From sequence record PQ416618.1: DNA of 64,000 bases; one strand, written 5' to 3'. Under the pieces are notes generated by a model that had not been told where the DNA came from, did no database searches, and saw nothing but the letters and a program-made list of their open reading frames with translations. Positions 4,463-49,886 of this stretch are shown here, piece by piece; the first letter of the stretch is position 1, and each line of letters begins with the position of its first letter. Source of the stretch: Escherichia phage vB_VIPECOMC06. Made by a program: the position numbers and the translations under genes.

Positions 4463-7174
4463 ATGAAAGAATTTTACTTAACGGTTGAACAGATTGGTGA
4501 TTCAATTTTTGAACGTTACATCGATTCTAATGGCCGTGAACGTACTCGTGAAGTAGAATATAAACCATCACTGTTTGCTCATTGTCCAGAAAGTCAGGCT
4601 ACGAAATATTTCGATATCTACGGTAAGCCGTGTACTCGTAAGTTGTTCGCCAATATGCGTGATGCCTCCCAATGGATTAAACGCATGGAAGATATCGGAC
4701 TTGAAGCACTTGGCATGGACGATTTCAAATTGGCGTATTTGTCTGACACTTATAACTATGAAATCAAATACGACCATACAAAAATTCGTGTGGCTAACTT
4801 CGACATCGAAGTAACATCTCCAGATGGGTTCCCTGAGCCGGCACAAGCAAAACATCCTATTGATGCTATCACCCATTATGACTCAATTGACGACAGGTTC
4901 TACGTATTTGATCTATTGAATTCTCCATATGGTAATGTAGAAGAATGGTCTATCGAAATTGCGGCTAAGCTTCAAGAACAAGGTGGTGATGAAGTTCCAT
5001 CTGAAATTATCGATAAAATCATTTATATGCCGTTCGATAACGAAAAAGAATTGTTGATGGAATATCTCAACTTCTGGCAACAGAAAACTCCTGTCATTTT
5101 GACTGGATGGAACGTTGAGTCATTTGATATTCCATATGTGTATAACCGAATCAAGAATATTTTTGGCGAATCTACTGCGAAACGTTTATCACCACATCGT
5201 AAAACTCGTGTTAAAGTTATCGAAAACATGTATGGTTCTCGTGAAATCATTACATTGTTCGGTATCTCTGTTCTTGATTACATTGACCTTTACAAAAAAT
5301 TCTCTTTTACCAATCAACCGTCATATTCCCTGGATTACATTTCAGAATTTGAATTGAACGTTGGTAAACTGAAATATGACGGCCCTATTTCTAAGCTTCG
5401 TGAAAGCAATCACCAACGATATATTTCTTATAACATTATCGACGTGTATCGTGTATTGCAAATTGATGCTAAGCGTCAGTTCATCAACTTGAGTTTGGAC
5501 ATGGGTTATTATGCTAAAATTCAGATTCAATCTGTGTTTAGCCCAATTAAAACATGGGATGCTATTATTTTTAATAGCCTTAAAGAGCAGAACAAGGTGA
5601 TTCCACAAGGTCGTTCTCATCCGGTTCAACCTTATCCTGGCGCTTTTGTTAAGGAACCTATTCCAAATCGATACAAATATGTAATGAGTTTCGACCTTAC
5701 ATCTCTGTATCCAAGTATTATTCGCCAAGTGAATATTAGCCCAGAAACAATAGCAGGAACGTTTAAAGTAGCTCCATTGCATGATTATATTAACGCTGTT
5801 GCTGAACGTCCTTCTGATGTGTACAGTTGTTCTCCTAACGGCATGATGTATTATAAAGACCGTGACGGTGTTGTTCCAACTGAAATCACTAAGGTCTTTA
5901 ATCAACGTAAAGAACATAAAGGTTACATGCTTGCAGCTCAACGTAATGGTGAAATAATTAAAGAGGCATTGCATAATCCTAATCTTTCTGTTGACGAACC
6001 ATTAGATGTTGATTATCGTTTCGACTTCAGTGATGAGATTAAAGAAAAGATTAAAAAGTTGTCTGCTAAATCTCTTAATGAAATGTTGTTTAGAGCTCAA
6101 CGTACTGAAGTTGCAGGTATGACTGCCCAAATTAACCGTAAATTGCTCATCAACTCGCTTTATGGTGCGCTTGGCAACGTTTGGTTCCGTTATTACGATT
6201 TGCGTAATGCTACTGCAATCACAACATTTGGTCAAATGGCTTTACAGTGGATTGAACGTAAAGTTAATGAATATCTGAATGAAGTTTGTGGCACAGAAGG
6301 TGAAGCTTTCGTTCTTTATGGTGATACAGACTCTATTTACGTATCTGCCGATAAAATTATCGATAAGGTTGGTGAATCTAAATTCCGTGATACCAACCAT
6401 TGGGTAGACTTCTTAGATAAGTTTGCACGTGAACGTATGGAACCAGCTATTGATAGAGGTTTCCGTGAAATGTGTGAATACATGAACAATAAACAACACT
6501 TAATGTTCATGGACCGAGAAGCTATCGCTGGGCCTCCACTCGGTTCTAAAGGTATTGGCGGATTCTGGACCGGTAAGAAACGTTATGCATTAAACGTGTG
6601 GGATATGGAAGGTACTCGTTACGCTGAGCCTAAACTCAAAATCATGGGTCTAGAGACTCAGAAATCTTCGACTCCTAAAGCAGTACAGAAAGCTCTTAAA
6701 GAATGTATTCGTCGTATGCTTCAAGAAGGTGAAGAATCATTACAAGAATATTTTAAAGAGTTTGAAAAAGAATTCCGTCAATTGAATTATATTAGCATCG
6801 CGTCGGTATCTTCTGCGAATAACATTGCTAAATATGATGTAGGTGGATTCCCTGGTCCCAAATGCCCGTTCCATATTCGTGGAATTCTGACGTATAACCG
6901 GGCTATCAAAGGTAATATCGATGCACCGCAAGTTGTAGAAGGTGAAAAAGTATATGTTCTGCCTTTACGTGAAGGAAACCCATTCGGTGATAAATGTATC
7001 GCATGGCCTTCCGGTACTGAAATCACAGATTTAATTAAAGACGACGTACTTCATTGGATGGACTACACTGTTCTCCTTGAGAAGACATTTATTAAACCAC
7101 TTGAAGGATTCACATCAGCAGCGAAACTCGAGTATGAGAAGAAAGCATCTCTGTTCGATATGTTCGATTTTTGA
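4463..7174 (+). CDS. 43: DNA polymerase gp43 (family B)
   Basis: 903 aa; exonuclease motif FDIEV, polymerase motifs YGDTDS and KKRY; N-terminus MKEFYLTVEQIGDS and length match the RB69-type polymerase as I recall it; RBS aaaggaaatt. Confidence 0.95.
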   Translation: MKEFYLTVEQIGDSIFERYIDSNGRERTREVEYKPSLFAHCPESQATKYFDIYGKPCTRKLFANMRDASQWIKRMEDIGLEALGMDDFKLAYLSDTYNYEIKYDHTKIRVANFDIEVTSPDGFPEPAQAKHPIDAITHYDSIDDRFYVFDLLNSPYGNVEEWSIEIAAKLQEQGGDEVPSEIIDKIIYMPFDNEKELLMEYLNFWQQKTPVILTGWNVESFDIPYVYNRIKNIFGESTAKRLSPHRKTRVKVIENMYGSREIITLFGISVLDYIDLYKKFSFTNQPSYSLDYISEFELNVGKLKYDGPISKLRESNHQRYISYNIIDVYRVLQIDAKRQFINLSLDMGYYAKIQIQSVFSPIKTWDAIIFNSLKEQNKVIPQGRSHPVQPYPGAFVKEPIPNRYKYVMSFDLTSLYPSIIRQVNISPETIAGTFKVAPLHDYINAVAERPSDVYSCSPNGMMYYKDRDGVVPTEITKVFNQRKEHKGYMLAAQRNGEIIKEALHNPNLSVDEPLDVDYRFDFSDEIKEKIKKLSAKSLNEMLFRAQRTEVAGMTAQINRKLLINSLYGALGNVWFRYYDLRNATAITTFGQMALQWIERKVNEYLNEVCGTEGEAFVLYGDTDSIYVSADKIIDKVGESKFRDTNHWVDFLDKFARERMEPAIDRGFREMCEYMNNKQHLMFMDREAIAGPPLGSKGIGGFWTGKKRYALNVWDMEGTRYAEPKLKIMGLETQKSSTPKAVQKALKECIRRMLQEGEESLQEYFKEFEKEFRQLNYISIASVSSANNIAKYDVGGFPGPKCPFHIRGILTYNRAIKGNIDAPQVVEGEKVYVLPLREGNPFGDKCIAWPSGTEITDLIKDDVLHWMDYTVLLEKTFIKPLEGFTSAAKLEYEKKASLFDMFDF

Positions 7175-7214: not shown

Positions 7215-7850
7215 ATGAAAACTACTCCTATTACTATCGCTATTGACGCAATCATAAAACAAGCTTCTTCTTTGGCCGCTATGGCCAAAGTAATTAGTCA
7301 AAACCCTGCTCGTTATAATGCTATTCTAGAAACTCTTCGACGCCCAGGACTTAGTAATTATGAAAGCCGAGTAATTATTACAGGTGTTGGTAAGAATGCT
7401 AATATTGCAACTAAAGCTTCTGAGACATTTGCTTCACTCGGTATCCCGAGTATGTACTTGAACACAGGGCATTATTCTCATGGTGATGCAGGATTCATTG
7501 CGCCTAATGATGTGTTGATTCATATTAGTCGTTCTGGTAAAACTGAAGAAATGATAGGTGTGGCTAAGCATCTTAAAATGATTCGTCCGAACGTCAAACA
7601 GATTCTGTTGCATTGTAACCCTGACATTCCACAAGAATACGAAGCTCTTTTTGATTATACGTTCTGTACAGGCATCGCAGTAGAGGTTGATGAGAATTCT
7701 CTGGCTCCGACCATGTCCACTACATTGTTGTTAGCGCTTATCGATACGTTTGCTATCAACCTTTCGTCTGAACGTGGATTTACCTCTAATGACTTCCTTA
7801 AGTTCCACCCTGGCGGTGCACTAGGTGCCATGTTACGAGGCGAACAATGA
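7215..7850 (+). CDS. SIS-domain sugar-phosphate isomerase, KdsD/GutQ-like (putative arabinose-5-phosphate isomerase), no CBS domains
   Basis: 211 aa; VIITGVGKNANIATKASETFASLGIPSMY...HGDAG...HISRSGKTEE and C-terminal LAPTMSTT...FLKFHPGGALG resemble the KdsD SIS domain as I recall it. Confidence 0.75.
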   Translation: MKTTPITIAIDAIIKQASSLAAMAKVISQNPARYNAILETLRRPGLSNYESRVIITGVGKNANIATKASETFASLGIPSMYLNTGHYSHGDAGFIAPNDVLIHISRSGKTEEMIGVAKHLKMIRPNVKQILLHCNPDIPQEYEALFDYTFCTGIAVEVDENSLAPTMSTTLLLALIDTFAINLSSERGFTSNDFLKFHPGGALGAMLRGEQ

Positions 7851-7990
7851 AAGCAATAACAATAGGACTTTTACTATTGATGCTTGTCATGACTATCTAC
7901 TGGAGCTTAACGGCTCCAGTATTGATTCCAACACTTGTAATCGGATGGATTATGATTGGACTACAAGCAAAGTATGAATGCTTTAACTAG
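7847..7990 (+). CDS. Small hydrophobic membrane protein (47 aa), absent from the ORF track
   Basis: ATG overlaps the stop of the SIS gene (ATGA); sequence MKAITIGLLLLMLVMTIYWSLTAPVLIPTLVIGWIMIGLQAKYECFN predicts two TM helices. Confidence 0.35.
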   Translation: MKAITIGLLLLMLVMTIYWSLTAPVLIPTLVIGWIMIGLQAKYECFN

Positions 7991-8031: not shown

Positions 8032-9717
8032 ATGAAAAAAGCTGTTATTCTTGGTGCTGGATTGGCAACTCGTTTGTATCCAATAACGCATCATATTCCT
8101 AAGGTGCTTGTTAACTATAAACAAGACACTATTCTGAGCAATTTGTATACAATTTATTCTGACCTTGGCGCAGATGAAATTATTGTAGTAGTTCATTCAA
8201 AATTTGCTGAAACTGTTCGAGCTTATTGTGAGCAAGAAGGGTTCAATGTGACTATTCGTACAGTTGATGAAGCGTATGGTTCTGCTTATGCTCTTGCTAA
8301 ATTACACAAAGATTTAGACGGCCATAATGTAATTGTTAACTGGTGTGATATTATTCCTGATTTCGGTTCATGGTCTTGGAATGTTAACGCAATCTATGTT
8401 AAGGGTGACGAATGTCGATATAATTTCGACGGTGAAAATATCACTAACGTAGGTTCAACAGGTGGTAATGTTGTAGGAATTTATCAGTTCAAAGACTGGG
8501 AATTCTATATGGGTTCTACTGATGAGGAAATTCATGAATACTGCAAAGGACGTGATTTCGTAGAATTCCTTTACGGCAGCGCATTCAATAAATCAGAGCT
8601 TATGAATCTAATTGATTTAGGTGATATGCCTAAACTTGAAAAAGCTCATGAAGTTCGTGAACTTAATCGTAGTTTTAATGCAGTTGAAATTGGTGAAGAA
8701 ACTGTAACTAAATTCGCATTAACCGAACAGGGCCGAGCTCTTCAGAAAGATGAGATTTCATGGTATCTTAAAGTGAAATCAGATTCAGTTCCTCAGTTAG
8801 TTTCTGTTAATGAAAATAACTTTGAAATGGAACGCATTAAAGGTAAGCCGGCATTTGAATATATTAAATCCAAATCAAGTCTTGCTCGTCCACAAATTGT
8901 TGATGCAATTTTAGACGCACTGAAATTCAGCACAGACACTTATTTTGTAAGTCCTGAAACTGTTCGTCGTGATTTCACTAAAGAATTCTATACGAAAGTT
9001 ATTGATCGTTGTGAAAGTATTCAACCATTGATTGATTCATTTGGTAAAATCACACATGTAAACTACACTAAGATTGGGCGTCTGAAGCCAATGTTGAAAC
9101 AAGCTTTAGAACACCTTATTCGTTATCATAACCGTTCTCAGGGACAGTACTCTGTTATTCATGGTGACCCGAACTTCAGTAATACTATGATTACTGATAA
9201 CGGTGAAGTCAAGTTTATCGACCCTCGTGGATATTTTGGCGAAACCAAGATTTACGGGCCAAAATTGTATGATGAAGCTAAAGTGCTTTATGCTGTTTCA
9301 GGTTATGATGAATTCAACGCTAATCCGACCTGGGGGCAGTTTACTATTGATGAAACAACTTGTAATGTGACTATTAACATCAATCCATTAGTTTACAAAT
9401 ATGGAAAGATGAGTTCGTTTAACGAGTATCATCATTTGGCAGTGGCAATTATCTGGATTGCATTAGGTGGTTATTTCAAGAATAATCCACTTAAAGCGGT
9501 AGCCGCATATTATAAAGGTATGGAACTTCTGACTAAGCAATTACGTAACATGGGCCGTGTACTTCAGGACGGCTCTATTAGTTATGACGTAGCAGAACCT
9601 GTAACGGCTACTCTGATTACAAAAAATCCTGGTAAATGGGTACTAACTGATAAAGAAACTGGTGTTTCCTATCGTCCAATCGGTGGCGATATCACTCATC
9701 AATGGGAACGAATCTAA
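8032..9717 (+). CDS. Bifunctional sugar-1-phosphate nucleotidyltransferase (N-terminal) / APH-choline-kinase-fold sugar kinase (C-terminal)
   Basis: 561 aa; N-terminal KAVILGAGLATRLYP (GxGTRL nucleotidyltransferase motif); C-terminal Brenner motif HGDPNFSNTMI and DPRG of the APH/ChoK kinase fold; RBS gagga. Confidence 0.75.
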   Translation: MKKAVILGAGLATRLYPITHHIPKVLVNYKQDTILSNLYTIYSDLGADEIIVVVHSKFAETVRAYCEQEGFNVTIRTVDEAYGSAYALAKLHKDLDGHNVIVNWCDIIPDFGSWSWNVNAIYVKGDECRYNFDGENITNVGSTGGNVVGIYQFKDWEFYMGSTDEEIHEYCKGRDFVEFLYGSAFNKSELMNLIDLGDMPKLEKAHEVRELNRSFNAVEIGEETVTKFALTEQGRALQKDEISWYLKVKSDSVPQLVSVNENNFEMERIKGKPAFEYIKSKSSLARPQIVDAILDALKFSTDTYFVSPETVRRDFTKEFYTKVIDRCESIQPLIDSFGKITHVNYTKIGRLKPMLKQALEHLIRYHNRSQGQYSVIHGDPNFSNTMITDNGEVKFIDPRGYFGETKIYGPKLYDEAKVLYAVSGYDEFNANPTWGQFTIDETTCNVTININPLVYKYGKMSSFNEYHHLAVAIIWIALGGYFKNNPLKAVAAYYKGMELLTKQLRNMGRVLQDGSISYDVAEPVTATLITKNPGKWVLTDKETGVSYRPIGGDITHQWERI

Positions 9718-10103
9718 TGCACCGTGTAAAAAACATGCTTAATCTTTGTTTTGATGTCGATGATTGTATAACAGAGTGGAATAACAATCGTGATTACGTG
9801 AACTTCAAACCAGACGTCGAAATGGTATCTGCCATTAATGCTCTGTATGATGCAGGGCATACCATAACGCTTTACACTGCTCGCGGTATGAAGTCAGTCG
9901 GTCCTGGTCGTATAGCAATCGACATTCTCCCAAGTCTGATTCAGAACTTGGCAAACATTGGCTTGAAGTACCATAATTTGCTAACACATAAACCAGTATA
10001 TGATTGGATTATCGACGACAAAGCTATGCGTCCTGACGAATTCAAAGCTCTTATGAATAAAGGCGAATTCGAAACATTTAAATCATATAAACCGAATCTA
10101 TAA
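9717..10103 (+). CDS. Small HAD-superfamily phosphatase
   Basis: 128 aa from ATG 9717 (TAATG overlap with the upstream stop); HAD motif I FDVDDCIT, motif II LYTAR, motif III-IV K...DWIIDDK. Confidence 0.6.
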   Translation: MHRVKNMLNLCFDVDDCITEWNNNRDYVNFKPDVEMVSAINALYDAGHTITLYTARGMKSVGPGRIAIDILPSLIQNLANIGLKYHNLLTHKPVYDWIIDDKAMRPDEFKALMNKGEFETFKSYKPNL

Positions 10104-10157: not shown

Positions 10158-11318
10158 ATGAATACCTTTAAAATCGGAACGAATTTTGATTTAGCTCTTC
10201 TTGATAAAATCGTAGAGCTCAATAAAACTTATCCTAATAGCTTGATAAACGAAGTATACGGCTCTACAAGAGAAATGGCTTTTGTAGCAGCCAGACCTGA
10301 TTTTAGGCTTCCTGACGTTGACAAAAAGATGTTAGAAGATTACGTTAAACGTTGTAACGAATTAGGTATTTGCTTTAACTATACACTCAACACGATAAAT
10401 CCTGGTTCAAAAAGAGAACTAGTTGAGTGGAAGAAGAAAGCTATTCAGGATTATGTTCAGTATCTTTGGTCAATAGGCGTATGGCGTATTACTATCGCTA
10501 ACCCTGTTGTTATGGAAATTGTTCGTGAAGTCAATAAAGACATTGAGATTGAAGTTTCAACAATTCTACATGTCGATGCTGTAACTCAAATCAAATACTT
10601 GCATGACCAGTATAATATCAAAAAGGTCTGCTGTGGAATTCATAAGAACCGTTCAGTTTCTTTCCTGAAGCGTGCAGCAGAGTTTTGCAATAAGAACAAT
10701 ATAATATTTGAAGTTCTTGTAAATGAGTTCTGTTCTAATGCTGGTAAAGGGTATACAACACATTGTAGTTATCGTGACTCTTGCTATATTTTCCATAGCA
10801 CCGATGTTACAGTAGATGATGCCAAATCCTTAAATGGATATCCAATGCAACACTGCATTAAAGCTCGTGATACAGACCCATTTAACTGGTTGAGAACTCG
10901 TTTTGTTCGTCCTCAAGATTTGAAACTTTATAATGATATTGGTATCACTCAATTTAAAGTTTCTGGACGTACAGGTAGCACCGACTACATTTTGAAAGTT
11001 CTTGAAGCTTATGCTTCTGAAAAGTTTGAAGGTAATTTGTTAGAACTGTGGAAGCCTTTAGAGACTATTTTCACTCTTGAAAACGAAACTGAGTTTTCAC
11101 ATACGGTAAATATTGAAACCTCTTTGTTAGATGGCTTTTTAGAAAAAAGGTGGTTCAAACATCCAGATTTCGATTGTGCTAATGAAATCTGTGGGACGAC
11201 GTGTACATATTGTGAAAGATATTATAAACGTCAGTTATCTAAAAACGGGTTATCAGAAAATTCTATATCTATTATTGATATAACTAACTCTGATGACGCT
11301 TTGAGGTACCCAGAATGA
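10158..11318 (+). CDS. Cysteine-rich hypothetical protein (386 aa), function unknown
   Basis: ATG 10158; C-terminal Cx4Cx3Cx2C cluster (CANEICGTTCTYC) plus CCG and HCSYRDSC; embedded in the sugar locus. Confidence 0.5.
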   Translation: MNTFKIGTNFDLALLDKIVELNKTYPNSLINEVYGSTREMAFVAARPDFRLPDVDKKMLEDYVKRCNELGICFNYTLNTINPGSKRELVEWKKKAIQDYVQYLWSIGVWRITIANPVVMEIVREVNKDIEIEVSTILHVDAVTQIKYLHDQYNIKKVCCGIHKNRSVSFLKRAAEFCNKNNIIFEVLVNEFCSNAGKGYTTHCSYRDSCYIFHSTDVTVDDAKSLNGYPMQHCIKARDTDPFNWLRTRFVRPQDLKLYNDIGITQFKVSGRTGSTDYILKVLEAYASEKFEGNLLELWKPLETIFTLENETEFSHTVNIETSLLDGFLEKRWFKHPDFDCANEICGTTCTYCERYYKRQLSKNGLSENSISIIDITNSDDALRYPE

Positions 11319-11591: not shown

Positions 11592-12308
11592 ATGGGAAAA
11601 CATAACACAATGAAATATATTAAAGCCGCAGATTTTCAATCCGCATTTAAAGCAGTCAATCGTGAAATTTTAGAAAACCCGGAATTCGTAACTGATTCTC
11701 GTATTGGACGTTGTAATGAAATTGGGTCTATGACAGTAGTTGTTGACACTCCATCTTCATTCAAAATGACCGATCCACGTATTAACCGCATCTCTTATGA
11801 ATATGCTGAAGATTTCTGGAAGTTTATGATTTCTGGTGGTACTGATGCAGAAGAAGCATTTAAGGCATATCCTAACGTTGCTAAATTTATTTCTAAACCT
11901 AAATCAGACGCTTTGCCTGCAAACTTCAACACTTTCTATGGTCCACGAATTGCGGCCCAGTTACCAGCTCTTTTAAAAGAACTTAAAGAGAAACCTAACT
12001 CCCGAAGAGTTGTGTTCCAAATTCTTGAAAGTTCAGATCAGGCTTTGCTTGATTCAGACGAAACACTTGAATATCCATGTACTGACTCAGTGACTTATTA
12101 TATTCGTGATGGTAAGCTTTATACCCACTGTCATATGCGTTCACAGAACTGTGCTGTTGTTATGCAGTTGGATTTTTATCTCCAAGGAAAATTACTTCAT
12201 TATATCGCTAAAGAATGTGGTGTAGAAGTTGGTGATTATACTCATACCATGGTAAGTGCCCATGTGTTTGAACGTGATTTTGATTATGTTAAAGGATTCC
12301 TTGACTAA
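11592..12308 (+). CDS. 42: dCMP hydroxymethylase (thymidylate-synthase fold), gp42-like
   Basis: 238 aa; TS-family features (SRR motif, catalytic Cys in EYPCTD); distinct from the canonical td at 59116; position matches T4 gene 42. Confidence 0.7.
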   Translation: MGKHNTMKYIKAADFQSAFKAVNREILENPEFVTDSRIGRCNEIGSMTVVVDTPSSFKMTDPRINRISYEYAEDFWKFMISGGTDAEEAFKAYPNVAKFISKPKSDALPANFNTFYGPRIAAQLPALLKELKEKPNSRRVVFQILESSDQALLDSDETLEYPCTDSVTYYIRDGKLYTHCHMRSQNCAVVMQLDFYLQGKLLHYIAKECGVEVGDYTHTMVSAHVFERDFDYVKGFLD

Positions 12309-13207
12309 TGGCTATTTTCCGCGTACCTATCTTGAGTATGCGGTCTTATGAAACTGGACAGTATGCTATCCTTAAGGATGGCAACTTCCAACTTCATTTG
12401 CACCGTGCTAATCCAGGTGATGTGATTACATATCCACGTAATGCATCTGATATTAAAGAATGCGAACGTCTTTTCCCAGAATTTAAGTTTGTTCCATTAT
12501 GGTATAAAGATAACGCGTATAACACTCGTAAATATTTCTGGTCTGAAAATGAATTTGTGGTTGATTCATTAATTGATTATTATGATTGTGATTTTCTAAT
12601 CACAGATATCACTGGATATGACGGCGCTTTTGATGTGGAATTCAATTTCAATATCACTGCAGACCCTAATAAACCACGTTTTTATATTGACGAATTCTTA
12701 AAAACCGACATGTTGTCTGTTAATCGTTCACTTCAAACTACTGTGTTGAATGAACGTCAAAAAGAAGTGCTGGTTAACGCAGGTGCAGATGGTAATAAGA
12801 TTATCGTAACCCAGAAAGTTATACGTCCTTCCATCATGCAGCGTCTTGTAGGTGATTTGGCTCCTATTCATCTAGATGGTATTTTTCATCCATTTCGAAT
12901 TAGTGACCCATGCTATCGTTTTGAACAAGTGGTTGAATGCGCAATTCAATTAGGCCAACCGCTTTATATAACCGATCCAAATAATAGCTTCGACAGAAAT
13001 AAGTATCCTGAAGAAGCGCTGATTCGAATTTTTAATCCAACTAAAACTGAGTACTATCAAATTCTTAAAGGACGTCCGAAGATTCAATATTTCGAAAATC
13101 CTGAAGAAGTATTCCATCCAGGTCTTGGTGAGTTCATCTACTTTAATGCTTTAATTTCTTCGCCGTATAATATACCTAAATATGAAGATGTCGTAATCGA
13201 GGAATAA
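12308..13207 (+). CDS. Hypothetical protein (299 aa) occupying the T4 beta-gt position
   Basis: TAATG-coupled to gene 42; no motif I can assign. Confidence 0.5.
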   Translation: MAIFRVPILSMRSYETGQYAILKDGNFQLHLHRANPGDVITYPRNASDIKECERLFPEFKFVPLWYKDNAYNTRKYFWSENEFVVDSLIDYYDCDFLITDITGYDGAFDVEFNFNITADPNKPRFYIDEFLKTDMLSVNRSLQTTVLNERQKEVLVNAGADGNKIIVTQKVIRPSIMQRLVGDLAPIHLDGIFHPFRISDPCYRFEQVVECAIQLGQPLYITDPNNSFDRNKYPEEALIRIFNPTKTEYYQILKGRPKIQYFENPEEVFHPGLGEFIYFNALISSPYNIPKYEDVVIEE

Positions 13208-13208
13208 A

Positions 13209-13757
13209 ATGGCTAAAATTATTTTAGTAGATGGCCCGGATAATGCCGGTAAAACAACTTTCATTAATGACATAATGGAAATTAGTGAAAGATATGTAAA
13301 GATTGATTTCCCTAAACGAACAGTTGATGGACGTTTCGATGTTAAGTCTCGAAATGAAGTTGGCTGTTTCGAAACGATGTTGAATTATTTAGACCCTACT
13401 AAGATTTATCTGTTAGACCGTGGATATATTAGTAACTGGGTTTATGGACGTATTCGACAAGATGCGGACTCGGTTCTTGACGTTTATGAACAGGATTATG
13501 TTCGTCTTTGCCAAAACCATGATGTGTTCACAATTATTTTAACACGTAACGAAATGACTGAAAGTTTTGAAGACGACCTTATTACTTTGTCTTCATTCGG
13601 TTTTAATACAGTCATTTCATATTTTGAAGAGTTTGCAATTCATAACAAAATTCAAACGTATCAATTACTTAATCATGATGGTGCTAACAAAGTTATAGGA
13701 TTTAATGCAAGCGAACGTAATAATTTGATTACAGAAATTATCAAATGGGCTCGTTAA
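13209..13757 (+). CDS. P-loop nucleotide/nucleoside-monophosphate kinase-like protein
   Basis: 182 aa; Walker A GPDNAGKTT near the N-terminus; translationally coupled to the upstream ORF. Confidence 0.5.
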   Translation: MAKIILVDGPDNAGKTTFINDIMEISERYVKIDFPKRTVDGRFDVKSRNEVGCFETMLNYLDPTKIYLLDRGYISNWVYGRIRQDADSVLDVYEQDYVRLCQNHDVFTIILTRNEMTESFEDDLITLSSFGFNTVISYFEEFAIHNKIQTYQLLNHDGANKVIGFNASERNNLITEIIKWAR

Positions 13758-32298: not shown

Positions 32299-33399
32299 AT
32301 GAAAGTTATGTTTATCCCATCTCGTGCAGTCCCATTTAATCCTGACCGTGTACAAGGTGGTCTTGAAGCAGTACATTTAAATGTGTTGAAATATCTTGTG
32401 TCCATCGGTGCTGATATTGATTATATCGGCTTTGATAATGACACGTTTGGTGACTGGAAAGTTACACACCATCCTGTTGGTCATCTGACTAAATTTAGCC
32501 TAGGTATGAGTTATACTATGGCTCGTAAGATTGTTGAACTAGCCGGCATTCATGAATACGATTTTGTTGTTACTATGGAACCGACTAAACTAACCGTTCA
32601 GGCAATTAAAGACGCAGGTCTCTCTAAAGTTCATAAGAATTTTATGGCAACACCATTTGAACCGGTATCTCGTGGCATTGTTCAAATTTGGGACCAGACT
32701 ATTCAAATTCATAAGAATGGCGGCAAGAGTTATGCTCCTACTAAAGCCTTCCGTGAATTTGAACGTAAATATTGTTATATGACTTCAGGTCTGACTGACA
32801 AAATTGATTATGATTATTGGCGAGCAAATCCGTTGTTTGAAGCCGAAGATTATCCGGTTATTTGTTTGAATGAGAAACCTGAAGTTCTTCCGGCGACTGA
32901 TCTGATTATTAGTGCACAACGTTATGACACTAAAATGCGTCGTACTGATGTTGCTCTTGAAGCGATTAAAGCACTAGGCGAAAATGGTGTAGGATACTGT
33001 CCTAGTAAATGGGCACCACCAGCTAAATATCCTGTTATTATTGATGCTCCACACAGTGAAATCATGGAACGTCTTAAAACAGCTAAAGCGCTTATTAATA
33101 CATGTCCTGACACAGGTACGGTAGAGAATAGTTCTATTGAAGCCATCTCTAAAGGTGTCCCTGTAATCCAGTTAGTTTTTAAGGATTATCCTCATGCGAC
33201 ATTCGAATACGACCCAGATACTGTGCGTGTAGAAATTGATTCCTCTACTCCTAAGAAAGAAGTAGTTGCGCTTTACACAAAAGCTGTATTAGAATTCACT
33301 GACACATACGAAGCTCGAGTTAAACGTGCTGAAGCAGTATGGAAGAAGTATAACCGAGATGCAGTTGTTGCGATGTGGGATAAAATCTTCACAGCGTAA
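32299..33399 (+). CDS. GT-B fold glycosyltransferase (GT4-like); candidate DNA hydroxymethylcytosine glycosyl/arabinosyltransferase
   Basis: 366 aa; C-terminal GT4-like E-x7-E motif with G-x-P-V-I (VENSSIEAISKGVPVIQ); N-terminal MKVMFIP...GG.E typical of a GT-B N-domain; not recognisably T4 alpha-gt or beta-gt. Confidence 0.65.
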   Translation: MKVMFIPSRAVPFNPDRVQGGLEAVHLNVLKYLVSIGADIDYIGFDNDTFGDWKVTHHPVGHLTKFSLGMSYTMARKIVELAGIHEYDFVVTMEPTKLTVQAIKDAGLSKVHKNFMATPFEPVSRGIVQIWDQTIQIHKNGGKSYAPTKAFREFERKYCYMTSGLTDKIDYDYWRANPLFEAEDYPVICLNEKPEVLPATDLIISAQRYDTKMRRTDVALEAIKALGENGVGYCPSKWAPPAKYPVIIDAPHSEIMERLKTAKALINTCPDTGTVENSSIEAISKGVPVIQLVFKDYPHATFEYDPDTVRVEIDSSTPKKEVVALYTKAVLEFTDTYEARVKRAEAVWKKYNRDAVVAMWDKIFTA

Positions 33400-43623: not shown

Positions 43624-44283
43624 TTATTTGGCCCTTCCTAGTATTCGGATCGCTTGGTTGCATATAGCCGCTAAGCGATCTTCCTCAAGTATATTACTCC
43701 CCTTATACCAATACATCGTCACAGTTCCGGCATAGATGTTATCCAAATTAAAGTATGGACAACTATACATATAAGAAAGTTCAGCAGTCTTAGATTTTGT
43801 AGGCAAAAATGCAAATTCTGATTTAGATGAGAAATGACGGCCACTTAAATGAATTATATATTCATTGGCCGTTTTATCCACCGGGAATCCGCCAAGGGAC
43901 TTTTCAGAAATTGTGCTAGGTAGTTTGCCTTCATAAGCTATAAGGTCGACGAAATAATTTAAGTTTTTAGGTCTGAAAGAATACACAGCACTAAAATCTG
44001 CACCAGATGAGATATGAACTATTTGCAGTTGTTCTAGAGCCGCAGATTCAAAACGTAAAGCTCGTTCTTTTTGGATTATTTCAGTATAAGTATCATACTT
44101 AGCTCTTACGTAATAATCCAGCAAAATACTTCCTTTGTACCATATTAGTGCCATTAGGAACAAAAGAATAATTACCGCTACTCGTGACATTAAAACCTTT
44201 CCAGTAGCGTTATCTTTGAAAATACGATCTAGCAACCCAAATAGAATATCACTAGGCGAAGATGATACTTTTGGTGTTGCCAT
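43624..44283 (-). CDS. t: Holin T
   Basis: 219 aa; single N-terminal TM segment and large periplasmic domain; matches T4 holin T; convergent with asiA with no intergenic gap. Confidence 0.9.
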   Translation of the reverse strand: MATPKVSSSPSDILFGLLDRIFKDNATGKVLMSRVAVIILLFLMALIWYKGSILLDYYVRAKYDTYTEIIQKERALRFESAALEQLQIVHISSGADFSAVYSFRPKNLNYFVDLIAYEGKLPSTISEKSLGGFPVDKTANEYIIHLSGRHFSSKSEFAFLPTKSKTAELSYMYSCPYFNLDNIYAGTVTMYWYKGSNILEEDRLAAICNQAIRILGRAK

Positions 44284-44292
44284 AATACCTCC

Positions 44293-44844
44293 TTACTTAA
44301 AGATATTTATAATCGCTTTGACAATAGATTTGTTTTCAAGGTCAGGGAATTTGGGGAATTCACCGCCAAGATGTTCATGTTTTTCTAAAAGGGCAAAGAA
44401 TTTTTTGAGCTCTTTAAATTTTCGTTTTTCTTCTCTATTAGCAACCTCTGCGTCAATAAGAGAACTTAAAACACTGAATAATTTATAGAGTTCATGAATT
44501 TTCTTATCACGTTGAACTACGCGTTTATATGCTTCATCTTCCTTCCACCCGTCGTCGGTCCAAATGTCAAATTCGCCAGGTTCTTCTGTAGTAACATTTT
44601 GAAGAGCCCCTGGAGTGTCAATAACAATTTTTTGCTTATCATAAGTCCATACTGTTTTTCCGCGATGGTCTTCAACATAAACCCATTCTTGCTCGCGTTC
44701 GTCAAATATAACAGCATAGCCTTCTTTATGGTCTAAAGGTTTTTTTGGTGTCGAATGAGCCGGAAATCCTACGCCTTTTAATGGTTTATAATTTTCTTCT
44801 TTGTAAAATTCTTTAGTGTCAAAATAATAGTGATAGAGTTTCAT
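44293..44844 (-). CDS. 38: gp38 tail-fibre assembly chaperone (T4 type)
   Basis: 183 aa; MKLYHYYFDTKEFYKEENYKP... T4-type gp38. Confidence 0.85.
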   Translation of the reverse strand: MKLYHYYFDTKEFYKEENYKPLKGVGFPAHSTPKKPLDHKEGYAVIFDEREQEWVYVEDHRGKTVWTYDKQKIVIDTPGALQNVTTEEPGEFDIWTDDGWKEDEAYKRVVQRDKKIHELYKLFSVLSSLIDAEVANREEKRKFKELKKFFALLEKHEHLGGEFPKFPDLENKSIVKAIINIFK

Positions 44845-44853
44845 ATTATAAAA

Positions 44854-44867
44854 GGGACCGAAGTCCC
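44854..44867 (-). promoter_or_regulatory. Hairpin (gggacuUCGGuccc on the - strand) between the SD and AUG of gene 38: structured, split ribosome-binding site
   Basis: GGAG (revcomp of 44870-44873) lies about 25 nt from the gene 38 AUG with the 14-nt hairpin in between. Confidence 0.55.
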
Positions 44868-44873
44868 TTCTCC

Positions 44874-47800
44874 TTATGCTAAACGAACGATATAGTTAAA
44901 AGCAACGTTTTTAACTGTGTTTTCTGTATTTCCTGTGGCATTTACAGTTATTGTATGTCCATGGGAACCAATTGCAACAGTATGAGAATGAGCACCAATA
45001 CCTACCGTATGGGTATGAGCACCAATACCAACAGTGTGGGCATGGTTACCCGTAGCGCTAGTAGTACCAGACCAACTATGGGTGTGGGCACCGTCTGAAG
45101 AAGTTTTGGCCATATTCGACGATGCAGTAGCACCGCTCACGGATCCAGTGATTTTAGCGTTACCGTTTGGACCAGCACTATTGTATCCATCATAGAATAT
45201 GCTAGCGGGTACGCCGCCTTGTATCTGAGGGCCTGAACGCGCGTGTTGGTGAGCACCGGCGGAACTAGTATTACCACTCACTGTATGGTTATGGTTGCCA
45301 GTGGTATTACTGGTCTTAGTACCATAATCAAAGCTTGAAGTCGTTTTGCTACCGTAATCAAAACTAGAAGTGGTCTTAGTACCCAAATCTGTGTTTGATG
45401 CACTTGCACTATGGCTATGTGACTTAACACCGTCTGCTTCTGTACTTAATACAGCACGCCCAGATGGTTTACCCTTGATAGTTTGACCACGCATATCAGG
45501 CAGAGAACCGGAAGGATACACAGCGGCTAACTTAGGATACAAGCCAGCATCAAATGTTTGACCTTCCATTATGGCATAACCTTCAGGAGGTGTATCAGTA
45601 GGCCAAGGAATCGGAGCACCAATTGGATAACTTGAGACAATATCCGTCTTAAGGTTATTTATTGTGGTATTCAAGTTAGCAAAGTTACCAGAACCACCAG
45701 TAATATTACCATCAGTTCCTAGTTGGGCATTTCCGACTTTAAAGGGTTTAGTGATTGACACGAAATTATCACTTATAACAAGACCGTGTCCATACGATTG
45801 GCTATAAAGTGATAAATCATTTCCAGAACCACCAAGACCAACATACCAAGATCTAGTTCCAGCTTTAGAACCCTGCAAATAATTAGCAGAAGAAGATGAA
45901 GGAGAATCTAGAGTAAGCGCTGCATTACGTTCATTAATAGTTACTGGACATATCATTTTAATAGTTTTAAGACTATTACTTACTTGTAATAATCCTGTAC
46001 CAGATCCAGAATCTCCTAAATGAACATCGTGCGACATTTTAACTGTGCCAGTGTTCAGTTCTATTGTCAATGGTCTAAGATTACTTATACCGCCTGATTC
46101 TCCAGCATCTTTAGGAGTCGGGATAATATATAATGATGCTTCTGAACGACGGAAAATTGCCCCGTATTCAGCATTCCAAATTCTTAATGCATCAGCTGTT
46201 CCGCCGATTTTAACTTGACCAGTAATAGAAGAACCACCAGTTAAATTAAGCCCATTATTCATGGTCACAGCACCTTCATGTGTACTCAATCCTCCCACAT
46301 AAAGGTTGCCAGTGGCGGTCAATGTTCCTTTTGCATTTAAAGAACCTGAAACTTGCATTAATACAGGGCCTATAGTTTCGTCACCTGTAGGCGCACCACG
46401 TTGAGAATAAAAATGGTATCCTTGTCCGTCACTAACTTCAAATACAGTTTCACGATATTTATCACCAGTGGTGTTAAATGCATTACCCCATGCTTTAACA
46501 GTTACATAACTCTTATTCTGACCTGCTCGAGTACCACCTTCCCACATGATTTGCTTAGTGCCATCAATACCTGAAGCTGCTTTAAAAACTAGAGAAGCAT
46601 TAGTTCCATCACCATTAAAATATAATCCATTATTAAGTTTTAATGTTTGAACAGAAGCGATGGTACCATCAGCACGTAAATTTAATGAATTTGAACCAGT
46701 TTTAAGATCTAAAATTCCTGGTTCAACAAGAAGTCCATCGCCCATGCTAACAGACATACGACCCGTGCCGCGGAAATAGTGATACATTTTAGAATTACTG
46801 CTATAACCAATATGAGTCTGCCCATCGCCGTTATTATTACCATCAACATCGGTGCGTGCGGTAAACATTGCTTGGTTGTTATTTGGAAAATCCCAAGTAG
46901 AACCGGAATCTCGACTATAACCAACCGTCAATTTTTTAGTACTATTAATACCATTATTCAAAATGGTAGCGGTTGAAATACTGTTAGCCATTAAGTCAAT
47001 AACGCCATCACGGACCCATTTAATACCAGTATCGTTATCGCCAATTGCAATACCAATGGAAATGGCAGACTCTAAAGGATAACGCCCATTTGTACCATTA
47101 TCAGGAAGACCTACTGAAATAGATTTACCTGCGGTAATACGCCCGGAAGTATCAAACGCCCATTGGAAATATTGAGCACCAGTCCCTGTCCACCAAGAAA
47201 TTTCGTGTGGTTTACCTGAACGAGCATCAGCAATTTCATGGAAAATAGCAGAAGAAACATGTCCGCGGAATTTACGAAGGTAGTTTATACCATTAGTATC
47301 CAAATCCGTTTCGGTTGGAGTATAGCGCCAAGTCGGTAATGAAACTAAATCATATGCAGTATCAATATTAGTGTCCCAAGATTTAGTGCTCACATTGATA
47401 TTTTTGGTAATAACTTTAGGACCAATTAAAGAACCAGCTTTAGTTTCAATATTACTTTGAGTAACTAAATATCCATTAGCTACTAATAAATTTCCGGAAT
47501 CAACTTGAAAATTACCATTACGGTTAAAGGTCCAATATTTCGAAGTGCCTGTTTCATCAATATAATGCATCTTCATTGAGCCTTCATTAACTAAGGTCCC
47601 TAATGAGAAAGTACCATCTTTATAACGTTGCTTAATTAACGGGTTATATTCTGAAGTAGCGGTTGATGCGGAAATATCCATGAAAATAGGGGCTTTTGCC
47701 GTGTGTTGACCAGCCCAAGAACCAACTCCGGTGGCCTTATAAGCAAATTCGATATATCCACCAGATGCAACATTTTGTGAGCCTATTAAATTAAATGTAC

Positions 47801-48014
47801 CTGTCTGAGTATAGTTACCTACATGAGTTACATTACCGTTAATATCCCCGCCTTTAGCAAAACCCAGATCAATGATATTTCCTAAATCATCTTTAGTAAA
47901 AATTGTTCTATCTTTTAAGTTTATAGCCAATTCACCTTCGGCTAATACTGAAGCAGCAGGGCGTGCACCTGCGGTTTTGCTTCTTTTAAATTGTATTTGT
48001 TTTAAAGTAGCCAT
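44874..48014 (-). CDS. 37: Long tail fibre distal subunit gp37
   Basis: 1046 aa; N-terminus [43 protein letters not shown]; C-terminal HxH repeats and ...[17 protein letters not shown] end as in T4 gp37. Confidence 0.95.
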
Positions 48015-48022
48015 AAGTCCTC

Positions 48023-48688
48023 TTAATAATAGCCGAAATCTTGAACAGAATCCTTAATTACGATTTGGTCGAAACGAGGAACATGATTAGCCTCAGACGC
48101 CGGATTCTGTGAGAAAAAGTTTGGTGCTGTTAAAGTACCAGTCATGGTGTCGCCTTTACGCAATACACGGGAATTTGCGTTATCCGTAACAATATTTATT
48201 CGTCCATCAACATAGTCCTTTCTAGTAAGGTCATTCGCTGCTACAGGAGCAGTAGCGTTAGAACGGACAGGACCAGTTGCATAAATACCACCTTTAGTGC
48301 TGATATCACCAGTACGAGTGTTAACAACAACAGTTCTACCTGCAGATCCTTGTGATGATTTAAAACCAATGCCATACCATGAAACAATATCAATATTTGC
48401 TGTATCAAAAGTAGCAGCATCGCCATTGCCAGGATAAATACCACTTTGATTTGTGTTATTTACGGCATAAGGTACTTGCACACCATTATTAAATGTTACT
48501 CGAGCGGCATACGTACCACCATTAGCTTTAGAAACAAAATCGTTATCAGCCGCTTGTGGTTTATTATATTCTGAATAGAGTTTAAACGTTTTATACAGGA
48601 CGTCATCACCTGCTGGCATTAAAGGGAAATTACCTTGATGCCATATAACGGCACCGCCAGTTGTACTACCAGCTTTTAAATCGGCCAT
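48023..48688 (-). CDS. 36: Long tail fibre distal connector gp36
   Basis: 221 aa; RBS AAGGAG; late promoter upstream; synteny 34-35-36-37. Confidence 0.85.
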
Positions 48689-48712
48689 AGTTGTCTCCTT
48701 ATATGTATACCA

Positions 48713-48720
48713 TATTTATA
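48713..48720 (-). promoter_or_regulatory. T4 late promoter TATAAATA (- strand) for gene 36
   Basis: Plus-strand tatttata, about 25 nt upstream of the gene 36 ATG. Confidence 0.7.
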
Positions 48721-48745
48721 CAAAAATGGGAGACCGAAGTCTCCC
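48721..48745 (-). terminator. UUCG-loop hairpin plus U tail after gene 35 (- strand)
   Basis: gggagacCGAAgtctccc (plus-strand representation) directly after the gp35 stop, followed on the - strand by auuuuug. Confidence 0.6.
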
Positions 48746-48750
48746 TAAAT

Positions 48751-49878
48751 TTATTCTGATGCTTCTTTAAATTCTTGTCCAAATACCTTACCAGTATCAG
48801 TTGAAGATTGAGTAGGTAATGTCATTATGTCTGTGGCACTTAAAGATTCTGAAACATAATTTACACGAATACCATTTATACCAAACTCAGCAGGTTTTGA
48901 AACGCTTCCATTATATGATACTTCAGTGAATATAACGTTTCTTAATCCACCTTGCCCGACTGGAGCTGTACGATAACAATAAATCGTGAACCCGTCAGCA
49001 CCAGCAGGAATTTCTATGTAGTCTTCATATATCTTCCATTCACCTGCAGCCCCATCAAAGTTTATATCCTTAAATGAAATAGGTGAAGTAGAAGGAGATT
49101 TAAAGAAACGAATAGAAAGTCGTGTCGTCCCTTGTGCTAACAAATCAGCATCGGCCATTAGTTGGAATTTCATATAAAGGAAATCTCCAGGCTTCAATTT
49201 ATACCCAGCGAGAGGTGTAATAAGGGACGTTGTAGGCATCCTTTTAATTTCATTATTAGTACCTCCAACAGCAGATAAAAATGTGTCTGTCGATTCGTAC
49301 GTACGACTAGGGAAGCCGGTAGCACCAATATCATCGATCGTGTCGTACACAACATCAAGTGGTGTACTATAGTCGGTTGAAGTTTTCTTATTACTATACT
49401 TAATATGTTCTAGTGCTATAGCATTCTTACCAGAAATATAAAATGCAGAATAAGAAATGTCCACTATATTTAAAACTTGTTGAGCTAATGGAATAACAGA
49501 ACTCCCAGCTTTAGTAAACCATGCAAGAACTTCAGGTGGAAAGTTCGTTTTAGCGTTAGTAACAAGAGCAAATATAAAATTTGAAGCATATGTGTCCATG
49601 AAAGTAACAAATGCACTTGACGTGGCGTCGTTTTCAGTAGAGAAATTATATGACTTAGATTCAACTACTGCACCTGTTGTAGGATTTATTACACGAACGT
49701 TTAATCCAACGGAAAAAACCTGGGACCCAAGTGGATTATCTTGGAACTTAATATAAGCAGGAGATGTTGATAGCGGACAAGAGCCCGCTATACTTAATTT
49801 AAATCGTACTGAATTGCTTTCCGATAAAAATGGCGTTTGGACATATCCTTGTCCAAACTTAGCCATAAATTTTTCCAT
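48751..49878 (-). CDS. 35: Long tail fibre hinge connector gp35
   Basis: 375 aa; between 34 and 36. Confidence 0.85.
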   Translation of the reverse strand: MEKFMAKFGQGYVQTPFLSESNSVRFKLSIAGSCPLSTSPAYIKFQDNPLGSQVFSVGLNVRVINPTTGAVVESKSYNFSTENDATSSAFVTFMDTYASNFIFALVTNAKTNFPPEVLAWFTKAGSSVIPLAQQVLNIVDISYSAFYISGKNAIALEHIKYSNKKTSTDYSTPLDVVYDTIDDIGATGFPSRTYESTDTFLSAVGGTNNEIKRMPTTSLITPLAGYKLKPGDFLYMKFQLMADADLLAQGTTRLSIRFFKSPSTSPISFKDINFDGAAGEWKIYEDYIEIPAGADGFTIYCYRTAPVGQGGLRNVIFTEVSYNGSVSKPAEFGINGIRVNYVSESLSATDIMTLPTQSSTDTGKVFGQEFKEASE

Positions 49879-49886
49879 AATACCTC

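Follow-up and report, generated by a model that had tools for sequence, protein, structure and literature searches.

The 64,000-nucleotide stretch of DNA from Escherichia phage vB_VIPECOMC06 analysed here (sequence record PQ416618.1; hereafter the window) carries on its + strand, between the DNA polymerase gene gp43 and uvsX, an open reading frame (ORF) at 8032–9717 whose product joins two enzymes of nucleotide-sugar synthesis in one chain. What does such a fusion make, and in what order do its two halves act? An earlier note described it as a single polypeptide, with a sugar-1-phosphate nucleotidyltransferase (NT) at its N-terminus and a kinase for the anomeric carbon of a sugar at its C-terminus, that would activate a free sugar to a nucleoside diphosphate sugar (NDP-sugar) in two steps. 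We find that the fusion is a genuine two-domain enzyme, a sugar C1-kinase combined with a nucleotide-sugar pyrophosphorylase: there is a single ORF, both folds are present and the catalytic residues are intact. Very probably it is the AfhE orthologue of a Mosigvirus and, like AfhE, serves with two activities in the synthesis of UDP-D-arabinofuranose (UDP-D-Araf), which is used to arabinosylate 5-hydroxycytosine in phage DNA.

The fusion has been described before. The gene was recognised by Thomas et al. (2018, PMC6024577), and its homologue AfhE is reported, in the account that Lee et al. (2026, PMC13326640) give of He et al. (2026), to have been characterised biochemically. With the story itself published, the practical value of the finding lies in annotation.

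One polypeptide with two catalytic domains

The ORF has 561 codons and is preceded by a GAGGA ribosome-binding site; the calculated probability that a frame of this length stays open by chance at 37% GC is ∼1e-17. Its product matches PHROG 4098 over the full length (E = 3.7e-295) and was found in 373 phage records, 27 of which carry a 100% identical protein. The window belongs to a Mosigvirus (an RB69-like T-even phage), being 98.3% identical over 5 kb to Escherichia phage F2 and 97.6% to RB69. The RB69 orthologue, ORF53_52c or gp52:53, occupies the same locus between gp43 and uvsX, also has 561 amino acids (aa) and is 99.6% identical in protein sequence.

Unlike the window, in which the frame is intact, the GenBank/RefSeq record of RB69 splits the gene by one extra C, and the fusion is annotated there as two genes, ORF053c and ORF052c. 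Direct alignment places the extra base at alignment column 655, corresponding to about position 8685/8686 of the window and about codon 218, at the domain boundary. Re-sequencing has shown that it is an error and that the product is one 561-aa protein of 63.9 kDa (Thomas et al., 2018, PMC6024577). The RB69 record (NC_004928.1; locus L001, 5034–6720 and 9317–10217) contains two such frameshift errors, the second of which splits gp47/gp46, a pair that is a single 299-aa ORF in the window.

An alignment of 74 homologues with 30–75% identity was the basis of both the profile and the structure model. The AlphaFold2 model made on it is of high confidence (mean pLDDT 94.7, pTM 0.91). A search of PDB sequences with the fusion found no structure of the family, AfhE included, the best match being LicC (E = 2e-5).

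The N-terminal motif LGAGLATRL, which the earlier note had picked out, lies at aa 7–15 and forms part of an NTP-binding signature, G-x-G-[TS]-R-x(n)-P-K, whose residues G10, R14, P23 and K24 are invariant or near-invariant in the 74 homologues, as are D106, D195, G197, D198 and K201. In the model this domain has a Rossmann-like α/β fold that can be superposed on PF00483-type members, with two acidic metal ligands. The Pfam NTP_transferase family (PF00483) is matched with 39.1 bits, above its cut-off of 21.2, over a span limited to aa 3–99. No NCBIfam equivalog reached its cut-off for this half; archaeal GlmU-like, AglF, RmlA, MurU and HddC models matched below threshold. When the profile from the alignment was compared with the PDB, HddC was the best match of the domain (E = 1e-14), accompanied by GDP-mannose pyrophosphorylases and LicC, and Foldseek recovered MurU, HddC, RmlA and LicC with this half of the model. 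Judged by profile and model together, the N-terminal half is a sugar-1-phosphate nucleotidylyltransferase of the RmlA/LicC/MurU/HddC type. The base-recognition loop (consensus V-D-E-x-x-G-S-A-Y-A) was considered as a guide to the nucleotide used and was rejected as unreliable, because enzymes specific for U, T, C and G all occur among the matches, at 15–23% identity.

In the C-terminal domain the motifs HGDPNFSN (aa 377–384) and DPRG (aa 397–400) are likewise where the earlier note had seen them. The Brenner motif H377-G-D379-PNFS-N384 and the metal-binding D397 are invariant in the alignments, and so is the ATP-anchoring pair K227/E241, which from its position in the secondary structure of the model would be the β3 lysine and the αC glutamate. 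G378, P398, R399 and G400 are invariant or near-invariant in the 74 homologues. The model shows a bilobal kinase fold whose structural relatives are LicA, choline kinase, the fructosamine kinase FN3K and aminoglycoside phosphotransferases (APH), at the level of fold and at 11–16% identity; the top Foldseek match of this half is APH(2'')-IIa (E = 2e-7, 16% identity), which shows a common fold, not a common function. By its sequence the domain is a divergent subfamily that stands outside every Pfam and NCBIfam model. A kinase of the APH/choline-kinase fold acting at the anomeric carbon is consistent with the Foldseek matches, with the conserved residues and with the C1 phosphorylation reported for AfhE in the summary of Lee et al. 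(2026, PMC13326640).

The catalytic residues of both domains are kept in a set of 10 sequences that includes proteins of an Enterococcus phage, a Tenacibaculum phage and giant-virus-like sources. Because they are also invariant or near-invariant in the 74 homologues, both active sites look intact. The check proposed in the earlier note, searches with profile hidden Markov models (HMMs) and structure prediction, upheld the fusion, and the C-terminal half did not prove to be an antibiotic or protein kinase, APH being one of several fold matches. The remark that the order of the domains is the reverse of that of the reactions also holds, the NT being N-terminal and the kinase C-terminal.

The chain ends in a 54-aa tail that is present in 46 of the 74 aligned homologues, all in a Straboviridae-type clade, and is missing from the distant phage and giant-virus-like homologues. 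This clade-specific tail might dock the separate phosphatase or the glycosyltransferases, in place of the covalent fusion found elsewhere.

A predicted route to UDP-D-arabinofuranose

A role for the RB69 orthologue in UDP-arabinose synthesis, together with ORF055c, was proposed by Thomas et al. (2018, PMC6024577). In RB69 DNA the cytosines have since been identified by NMR as β-D-Araf-3-α-D-Araf-5-hydroxy-dC, and gp48, a ThyA homologue, makes 5-hydroxy-dCMP; gp52:53 was assigned NT and kinase functions, analogous to AfhE, with which it is taken to be orthologous, in a computational re-analysis (Lee et al., 2026, PMC13326640). AfhE of phage HY126 is itself described, in the part of He et al. 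(2026) relayed by Lee et al. (2026, PMC13326640), as a dual D-arabinose-5-phosphate kinase/UDP-D-arabinose pyrophosphorylase, and AfhF as a Mg-dependent phosphatase that converts arabinofuranose-1,5-bisphosphate (Araf-1,5-P2) to Araf-1-P. DLP3 glycosyltransferases used UDP-Araf on RB69 DNA in vitro, and UDP-arabinopyranose (UDP-Arap) was inactive (Lee et al., 2026, PMC13326640). In phage Thanatos, the homologue TH1_060, with 54% identity to the fusion, is essential for propagation (Thanatos paper).

The HY126 system as reported there, an N-terminal NT and a C-terminal kinase in one chain, an AfhF phosphatase of the HAD type and a flavin-dependent ThyA-like 5-hydroxy-dCMP (5hodCMP) synthase, has its counterpart in the window, where an isomerase, an AfhF-type phosphatase, a ThyA-like synthase and arabinosyltransferase homologues are all encoded (Table 1). 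The HAD protein of the window is identical at 127 of 128 residues to PDB 9iqw, and the ThyA homologue at 235 of 238 to PDB 9iqc/9ir2/9iqu; with ∼99% identity to these entries, the cluster has already been studied structurally. As the entry codes run on from one another and Lee et al. (2026) describe an HY126 structure with bound flavin, the entries are presumably HY126 proteins deposited by He et al. Since 1 of 128 and 3 of 238 residues differ, the window comes from a close relative of the PDB source and not from the same isolate.

In the route that these genes would make up, the SIS isomerase would convert host ribulose-5-phosphate to D-arabinose-5-phosphate, which the C-terminal kinase domain would phosphorylate at C1 with ATP to give Araf-1,5-P2. 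The HAD phosphatase encoded downstream would remove the 5-phosphate to leave Araf-1-P, and the NT domain would combine this with UTP to form UDP-Araf and pyrophosphate, after which the glycosyltransferases would place Araf on the 5-hydroxycytosine made by the ThyA homologue. The fusion would supply steps 2 (kinase) and 4 (NT), which are not consecutive, as the HAD step lies between them; in this it would resemble HldE in ADP-heptose synthesis. It is probably part of a de novo route from ribulose-5-phosphate rather than a salvage pair of the AmgK/MurU type, and by analogy with AfhE, as far as its enzymology is relayed by Lee et al., the likely substrate of the kinase is D-arabinose-5-phosphate and not the free sugar. 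On the same analogy the window protein would behave identically to AfhE. The activation of a free sugar in two consecutive steps by one protein, which the earlier note had envisaged, is probably wrong, AfhE being reported second-hand to use arabinose-5-phosphate with a separate HAD enzyme intervening. Phosphorylation at C1 of the 5-phosphate ester, rather than of free arabinose, would lock the furanose form, and such locking of the ring would explain why Araf and not Arap is found in the DNA.

The same logic is known from heptose metabolism. In the GmhA/HddA/GmhB/HddC and GmhA/HldE/GmhB pathways the kinase acts first and the phosphatase afterwards; HldE is a fusion that serves two non-consecutive steps on the way to ADP-heptose, and HddA and HddC belong to GDP-heptose synthesis. 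The likeness to the route predicted for the window extends to each component: an SIS isomerase, an anomeric kinase for a distally phosphorylated sugar, an HAD phosphatase and a nucleotidyltransferase. It also fits that, of the PDB entries, HddC is the one matched best by the profile in the N-terminal domain. The catalytic parts are not the same, however. The HldE kinase has a ribokinase fold and HddA is a GHMP kinase, so that neither is homologous to the APH/choline-kinase-fold domain of the fusion; HldE has an NT of the cytidylyltransferase family, not of PF00483; and the sugar here would be a pentose (C5), not a heptose.

Enterobacteria do not normally contain UDP-D-arabinofuranose, and the fusion would be the committed, phage-encoded step towards it. 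Arabinose on every cytosine of RB69-like phages allows evasion of restriction enzymes, DNA glycosylases and some CRISPR systems.

Several points weigh against this assignment. The enzymology of AfhE and AfhF is available second-hand, through Lee et al. (2026), and the equation of the window protein with AfhE is drawn from two of its neighbours, each ∼99% identical to PDB entries presumed to come from HY126. Table 1 of Lee et al. (2026, PMC13326640) gives a phosphatase-first order for RB69, in which gp51 dephosphorylates Ara5P and the Ara so formed is turned into Ara1P by the C-terminal domain of gp52:53. Against Pfam, all matches of the C-terminal half fall below the gathering thresholds; those to Fructosamin_kin (17.1 bits against 22.4), EcKL (16.2 against 22), RIO1 and APH (14.4 against 23.2) lie at aa 344–409. 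Finally, purified Thanatos TH1_060 had no pyrophosphorylase activity with xylose-1-phosphate and any of five NTPs (Thanatos paper). The negative result with xylose-1-phosphate is compatible with a strict sugar specificity.

The order in Table 1 of Lee et al. is that expected if the HAD phosphatase produces free D-arabinose, or the host supplies the sugar, and the fusion then performs two consecutive steps, phosphorylation at C1 followed by nucleotidyl transfer. Such a salvage-type order is in keeping with the closest folds of the kinase domain (LicA, choline kinase, FN3K and APH), all of which use non-phosphorylated hydroxyl substrates. Gene context was considered as an arbiter between the two orders and rejected, as both use the same four activities (isomerase, phosphatase, kinase and NT). 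We nevertheless consider the salvage-type order unlikely. It leaves unaccounted for the furanose form of the arabinose in the DNA and of the UDP-Araf that the glycosyltransferases take as donor, while free D-arabinose in solution is mostly in the pyranose form; a 5-phosphate would force the furanose ring. The precedent pathways that combine an SIS isomerase, an HAD phosphatase and an HddC-like NT are all kinase-first, and the biochemistry of AfhE and AfhF, in the form in which Lee et al. (2026) pass it on from He et al. (2026), contradicts the salvage order. The comparison with AmgK/MurU and LicA/LicC drawn in the earlier note was sound in that LicC and MurU are the closest structural relatives of the NT domain, and LicA and choline kinase of the kinase domain. 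The resemblance is at the level of fold only, with identities to the window fusion of 11–21% for LicC/LicA (fused as LicCA in some bacteria) and MurU/AmgK, and the salvage logic did not carry over: LicA takes free choline and AmgK free MurNAc, both for salvage and with no phosphatase acting in between, whereas the AfhE type is reported, in the same indirect account, to act on a sugar 5-phosphate and to depend on a phosphatase for the step between its own two.

A fusion of the same architecture could instead serve another sugar, such as xylose or a deoxypentose, or another nucleotide, as in a GDP-, CDP- or dTDP-pentose. Among the N-terminal matches are enzymes specific for G, C, U and T, some homologues are annotated as guanylyltransferase or GlmU, and the Thanatos authors read their modification as a deoxypentose. 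The sequence did not reveal the nucleotide specificity, but the statement of the earlier note that sugar and nucleotide cannot be read needs correction in practice, since the gene neighbourhood and previous studies give D-Araf and UDP. The gene directly upstream is that of an arabinose-5-phosphate isomerase (API), RB69, with its nearly identical orthologue, has D-Araf in its DNA by NMR, UDP-Araf is the donor of the glycosyltransferases, and AfhE is reported at second hand to be a UDP-D-arabinose pyrophosphorylase. Another sugar or nucleotide is therefore quite improbable. D-arabinose, the first sugar that the earlier note had suggested for assay, is supported by the API gene and by both previous studies (Thomas et al., 2018; Lee et al., 2026).

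An early suggestion, made for RB69 ORF053c and TH1_060, was that the fusion is itself a DNA glycosyltransferase, by virtue of a GT-A-like N-terminal fold; the Thanatos paper keeps TH1_060 as a candidate. TH1_060 showed no transfer activity in vitro (Thanatos paper), and HMM scores with the T4 α-gt were insignificant (Thomas et al., 2018, PMC6024577). The domain has the pyrophosphorylase signature G-x-G-T-R…P-K, its best matches are all sugar-1-phosphate nucleotidylyltransferases, and separate arabinosyltransferases of the GT-B type are assigned in the same genome; we give this idea hardly any credence. The top Foldseek match of the C-terminal domain and its weak Pfam matches to RIO1, ABC1 and Seadorna_VP7 might point to a kinase for antibiotics or proteins that has no part in activating a sugar, a reading with next to no probability.

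Neighbouring genes and their annotation

Along the + strand, gp43 is followed by the SIS isomerase, a 47-aa ORF, the fusion, the HAD gene, a U32-family gene, the ThyA homologue, a glycosyltransferase, a thymidylate-kinase-like gene and uvsX (Table 1). Reading frames abut closely: the start of the 47-aa ORF overlaps the stop codon of the isomerase (ATGA), and the ATG of the HAD gene overlaps the stop codon of the fusion (TAATG, 9717), an arrangement by which the HAD gene is predicted to be translationally coupled to the fusion gene. The product of the first glycosyltransferase gene is 98% identical to RB69 gp47 over aa 1–181.

Table 1. Features of the window and of related contigs. Positions are those of the window unless a locus (L) is named.
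Feature	Position	Strand	Basis or remark
DNA polymerase gp43	4463–7174	+	
D-arabinose-5-phosphate isomerase (API), SIS domain; RB69 gp55 homologue	7215–7850	+	Pfam SIS, E = 1.7e-10; phrog_5670 'arabinose 5-phosphate isomerase', E = 2e-116; RB69 annotation
Strongly hydrophobic 47-aa ORF, MKAITIGLLLLMLVMTIYWSLTAPVLIPTLVIGWIMIGLQAKYECFN	7847–7990	+	RB69ORF054c region
AfhE-type fusion gene, 561 aa	8032–9717	+	ORF; phrog_4098; orthologue of RB69 ORF53_52c (gp52:53)
Nucleotidyltransferase (NT) domain, aa 1–205	8032–8646	+	Signature G10..R14..P23-K24; putative metal-binding D106, D195-x-G-D198-x-x-K201
APH/choline-kinase-fold small-molecule kinase domain, aa 210–507	8659–9552	+	K227/E241; H377-G-D379-x4-N384; D397-P-R-G400
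C-terminal tail, aa 508–561	9553–9714	+	Short β strands in the model, pLDDT 81–91
Small HAD-type phosphatase, 128 aa, AfhF-type; RB69 gp51 homologue	9717–10103	+	HAD motif I FDVDDC
U32 'peptidase'-family protein; RB69 gp50 homologue	10158–11318	+	Pfam PF01136, E = 6e-11; phrog_5757; weak NCBIfam UbiU match
ThyA-homologue 5-hydroxy-dCMP synthase; RB69 gp48 homologue	11592–12308	+	Pfam Thymidylat_synt; predicted maker of the acceptor base
Putative first DNA arabinosyltransferase, single 299-aa ORF	12308–13207	+	phrog_3891; assignment of Lee et al. (2026)
Thymidylate-kinase-like nucleotide kinase; RB69 gp45 homologue	13209–13757	+	phrog_761, E = 5e-45; RB69 annotation
Second putative arabinosyltransferase; RB69 ORF003c homologue	32299–33399	+	363/366 identical to RB69p003; assigned by Thomas et al. 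(2018) and Lee et al. (2026)
Four-domain protein P0084	L006 8001–10781		Contig with MutS7-HNH, Rpb2, RNA_pol_N
Four-domain protein P0109	L010 5545–8283		Contig with SNF2, C48 protease, Asn synthase
Four-domain protein P0092	L009 14–2854		Contig with Sulfotransfer_2

Existing annotation of these genes is uneven. PHROG 4098 bears the label 'unknown function', and in most of the 373 records the fusion goes under 'hypothetical protein', 'guanylyltransferase' or 'GlmU'. For the HAD gene, RefSeq and PHROG 1238 give the wrong name 'phosphoheptose isomerase', as does PDB 9iqw with 'Capsule biosynthesis protein'.

The U32-family protein, encoded inside the 5-hydroxycytosine/arabinose cluster, is rich in Cys and has the pattern CxxxxCxxxCxxC towards its C-terminus. 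U32 members of established function, such as RlhA (ho5C2501), TrhP (ho5U34) and UbiU/V, are O2-independent hydroxylases. Together with the weak match to UbiU, which hydroxylates ubiquinone anaerobically, this raises the idea of an anaerobic back-up: the protein may be an anaerobic alternative, towards 5-hydroxycytosine, to the O2/flavin-dependent ThyA-like 5hodCMP synthase. In Lee et al. (2026, PMC13326640) gp50 is labelled 'sugar or heterocycle reductase', and U32, RlhA and TrhP are never mentioned.

A scan for promoters and terminators between 7 and 14 kb gave nothing above shuffled expectation, and there are no tRNA genes and no Rfam matches in the window. Its sole minus-strand block lies at 43624–53762, where the GC skew is reversed and ORFs of 1046 and 1291 aa are found.

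Homologues outside the T-even phages

Proteins of 890–955 aa join HAD, SIS, NT and kinase domains in one chain and provide Rosetta-stone evidence for a shared pathway. Three independent lines, these four-domain fusions and the gene modules of phages PTm1 and 9183 described below, indicate that the isomerase, kinase, phosphatase and NT activities belong together.

P0084, P0109 and P0092 are four-domain proteins of 912–946 aa in which all catalytic residues of NT and kinase are kept. Giant-virus-type genes on their contigs (Table 1) also include a single-ORF Rpb2, Autophagy_act_C and a Ulp1-type C48 protease. Sequence and context suggest that these proteins would be all-in-one NDP-arabinose synthases of Nucleocytoviricota-like viruses; a literature search on four-domain giant-virus-like fusions found nothing. 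A further four-domain fusion, P0091 (955 aa), occurs in several isoforms in the EukProt transcriptome of the slime mould Ceratiomyxa fruticulosa; host gene, viral transcript and contamination are all conceivable.

Unfused neighbours accompany the homologues in two distant phages. In Tenacibaculum phage PTm1 (L003, 6001–8939) the fusion, with 27% identity to that of the window, stands with a histidine phosphatase in place of an HAD and with a ThyA/hydroxymethylase homologue. In Enterococcus phage 9183 (L005, 3866–7593), where identity is 25%, genes for ThyA, a dUTPase and an HAD protein precede it in that order, and the module also holds genes for a dTMP kinase and a 'nucleotide sugar synthetase-like' product. 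These modules suggest related pentosyl-pyrimidine DNA modifications in phages of Flavobacteria and of Gram-positive bacteria.

It is possible, though we put it forward only tentatively, that the NT–kinase core is part of a wider, self-contained route from ribulose-5-phosphate to NDP-D-arabinofuranose. Should the four-domain and unfused homologues prove functional, viruses of eukaryotes and of Gram-positive bacteria would also make NDP-D-Araf, and might pentosylate DNA or virion glycans with it.

Other members of the family depart from this pattern. The homologue of Vibrio phage D490 (L004, 5998–7305) is shorter, with 435 aa and 28% identity; its neighbours are NAD-salvage, QueC-like and radical-SAM genes, neither a phosphatase nor a ThyA homologue is encoded close by, and it may serve a different pathway. 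Five proteins of 777–790 aa (P0106, P0111, P0108, P0112 and P0116) form a variant with an extra C-terminal region of ∼250 aa. In P0106 this region has a weak cupin/mannose-6-phosphate-isomerase-like match (PF01050, E = 6e-4); it could be another isomerase in place of the SIS domain, implying another sugar.

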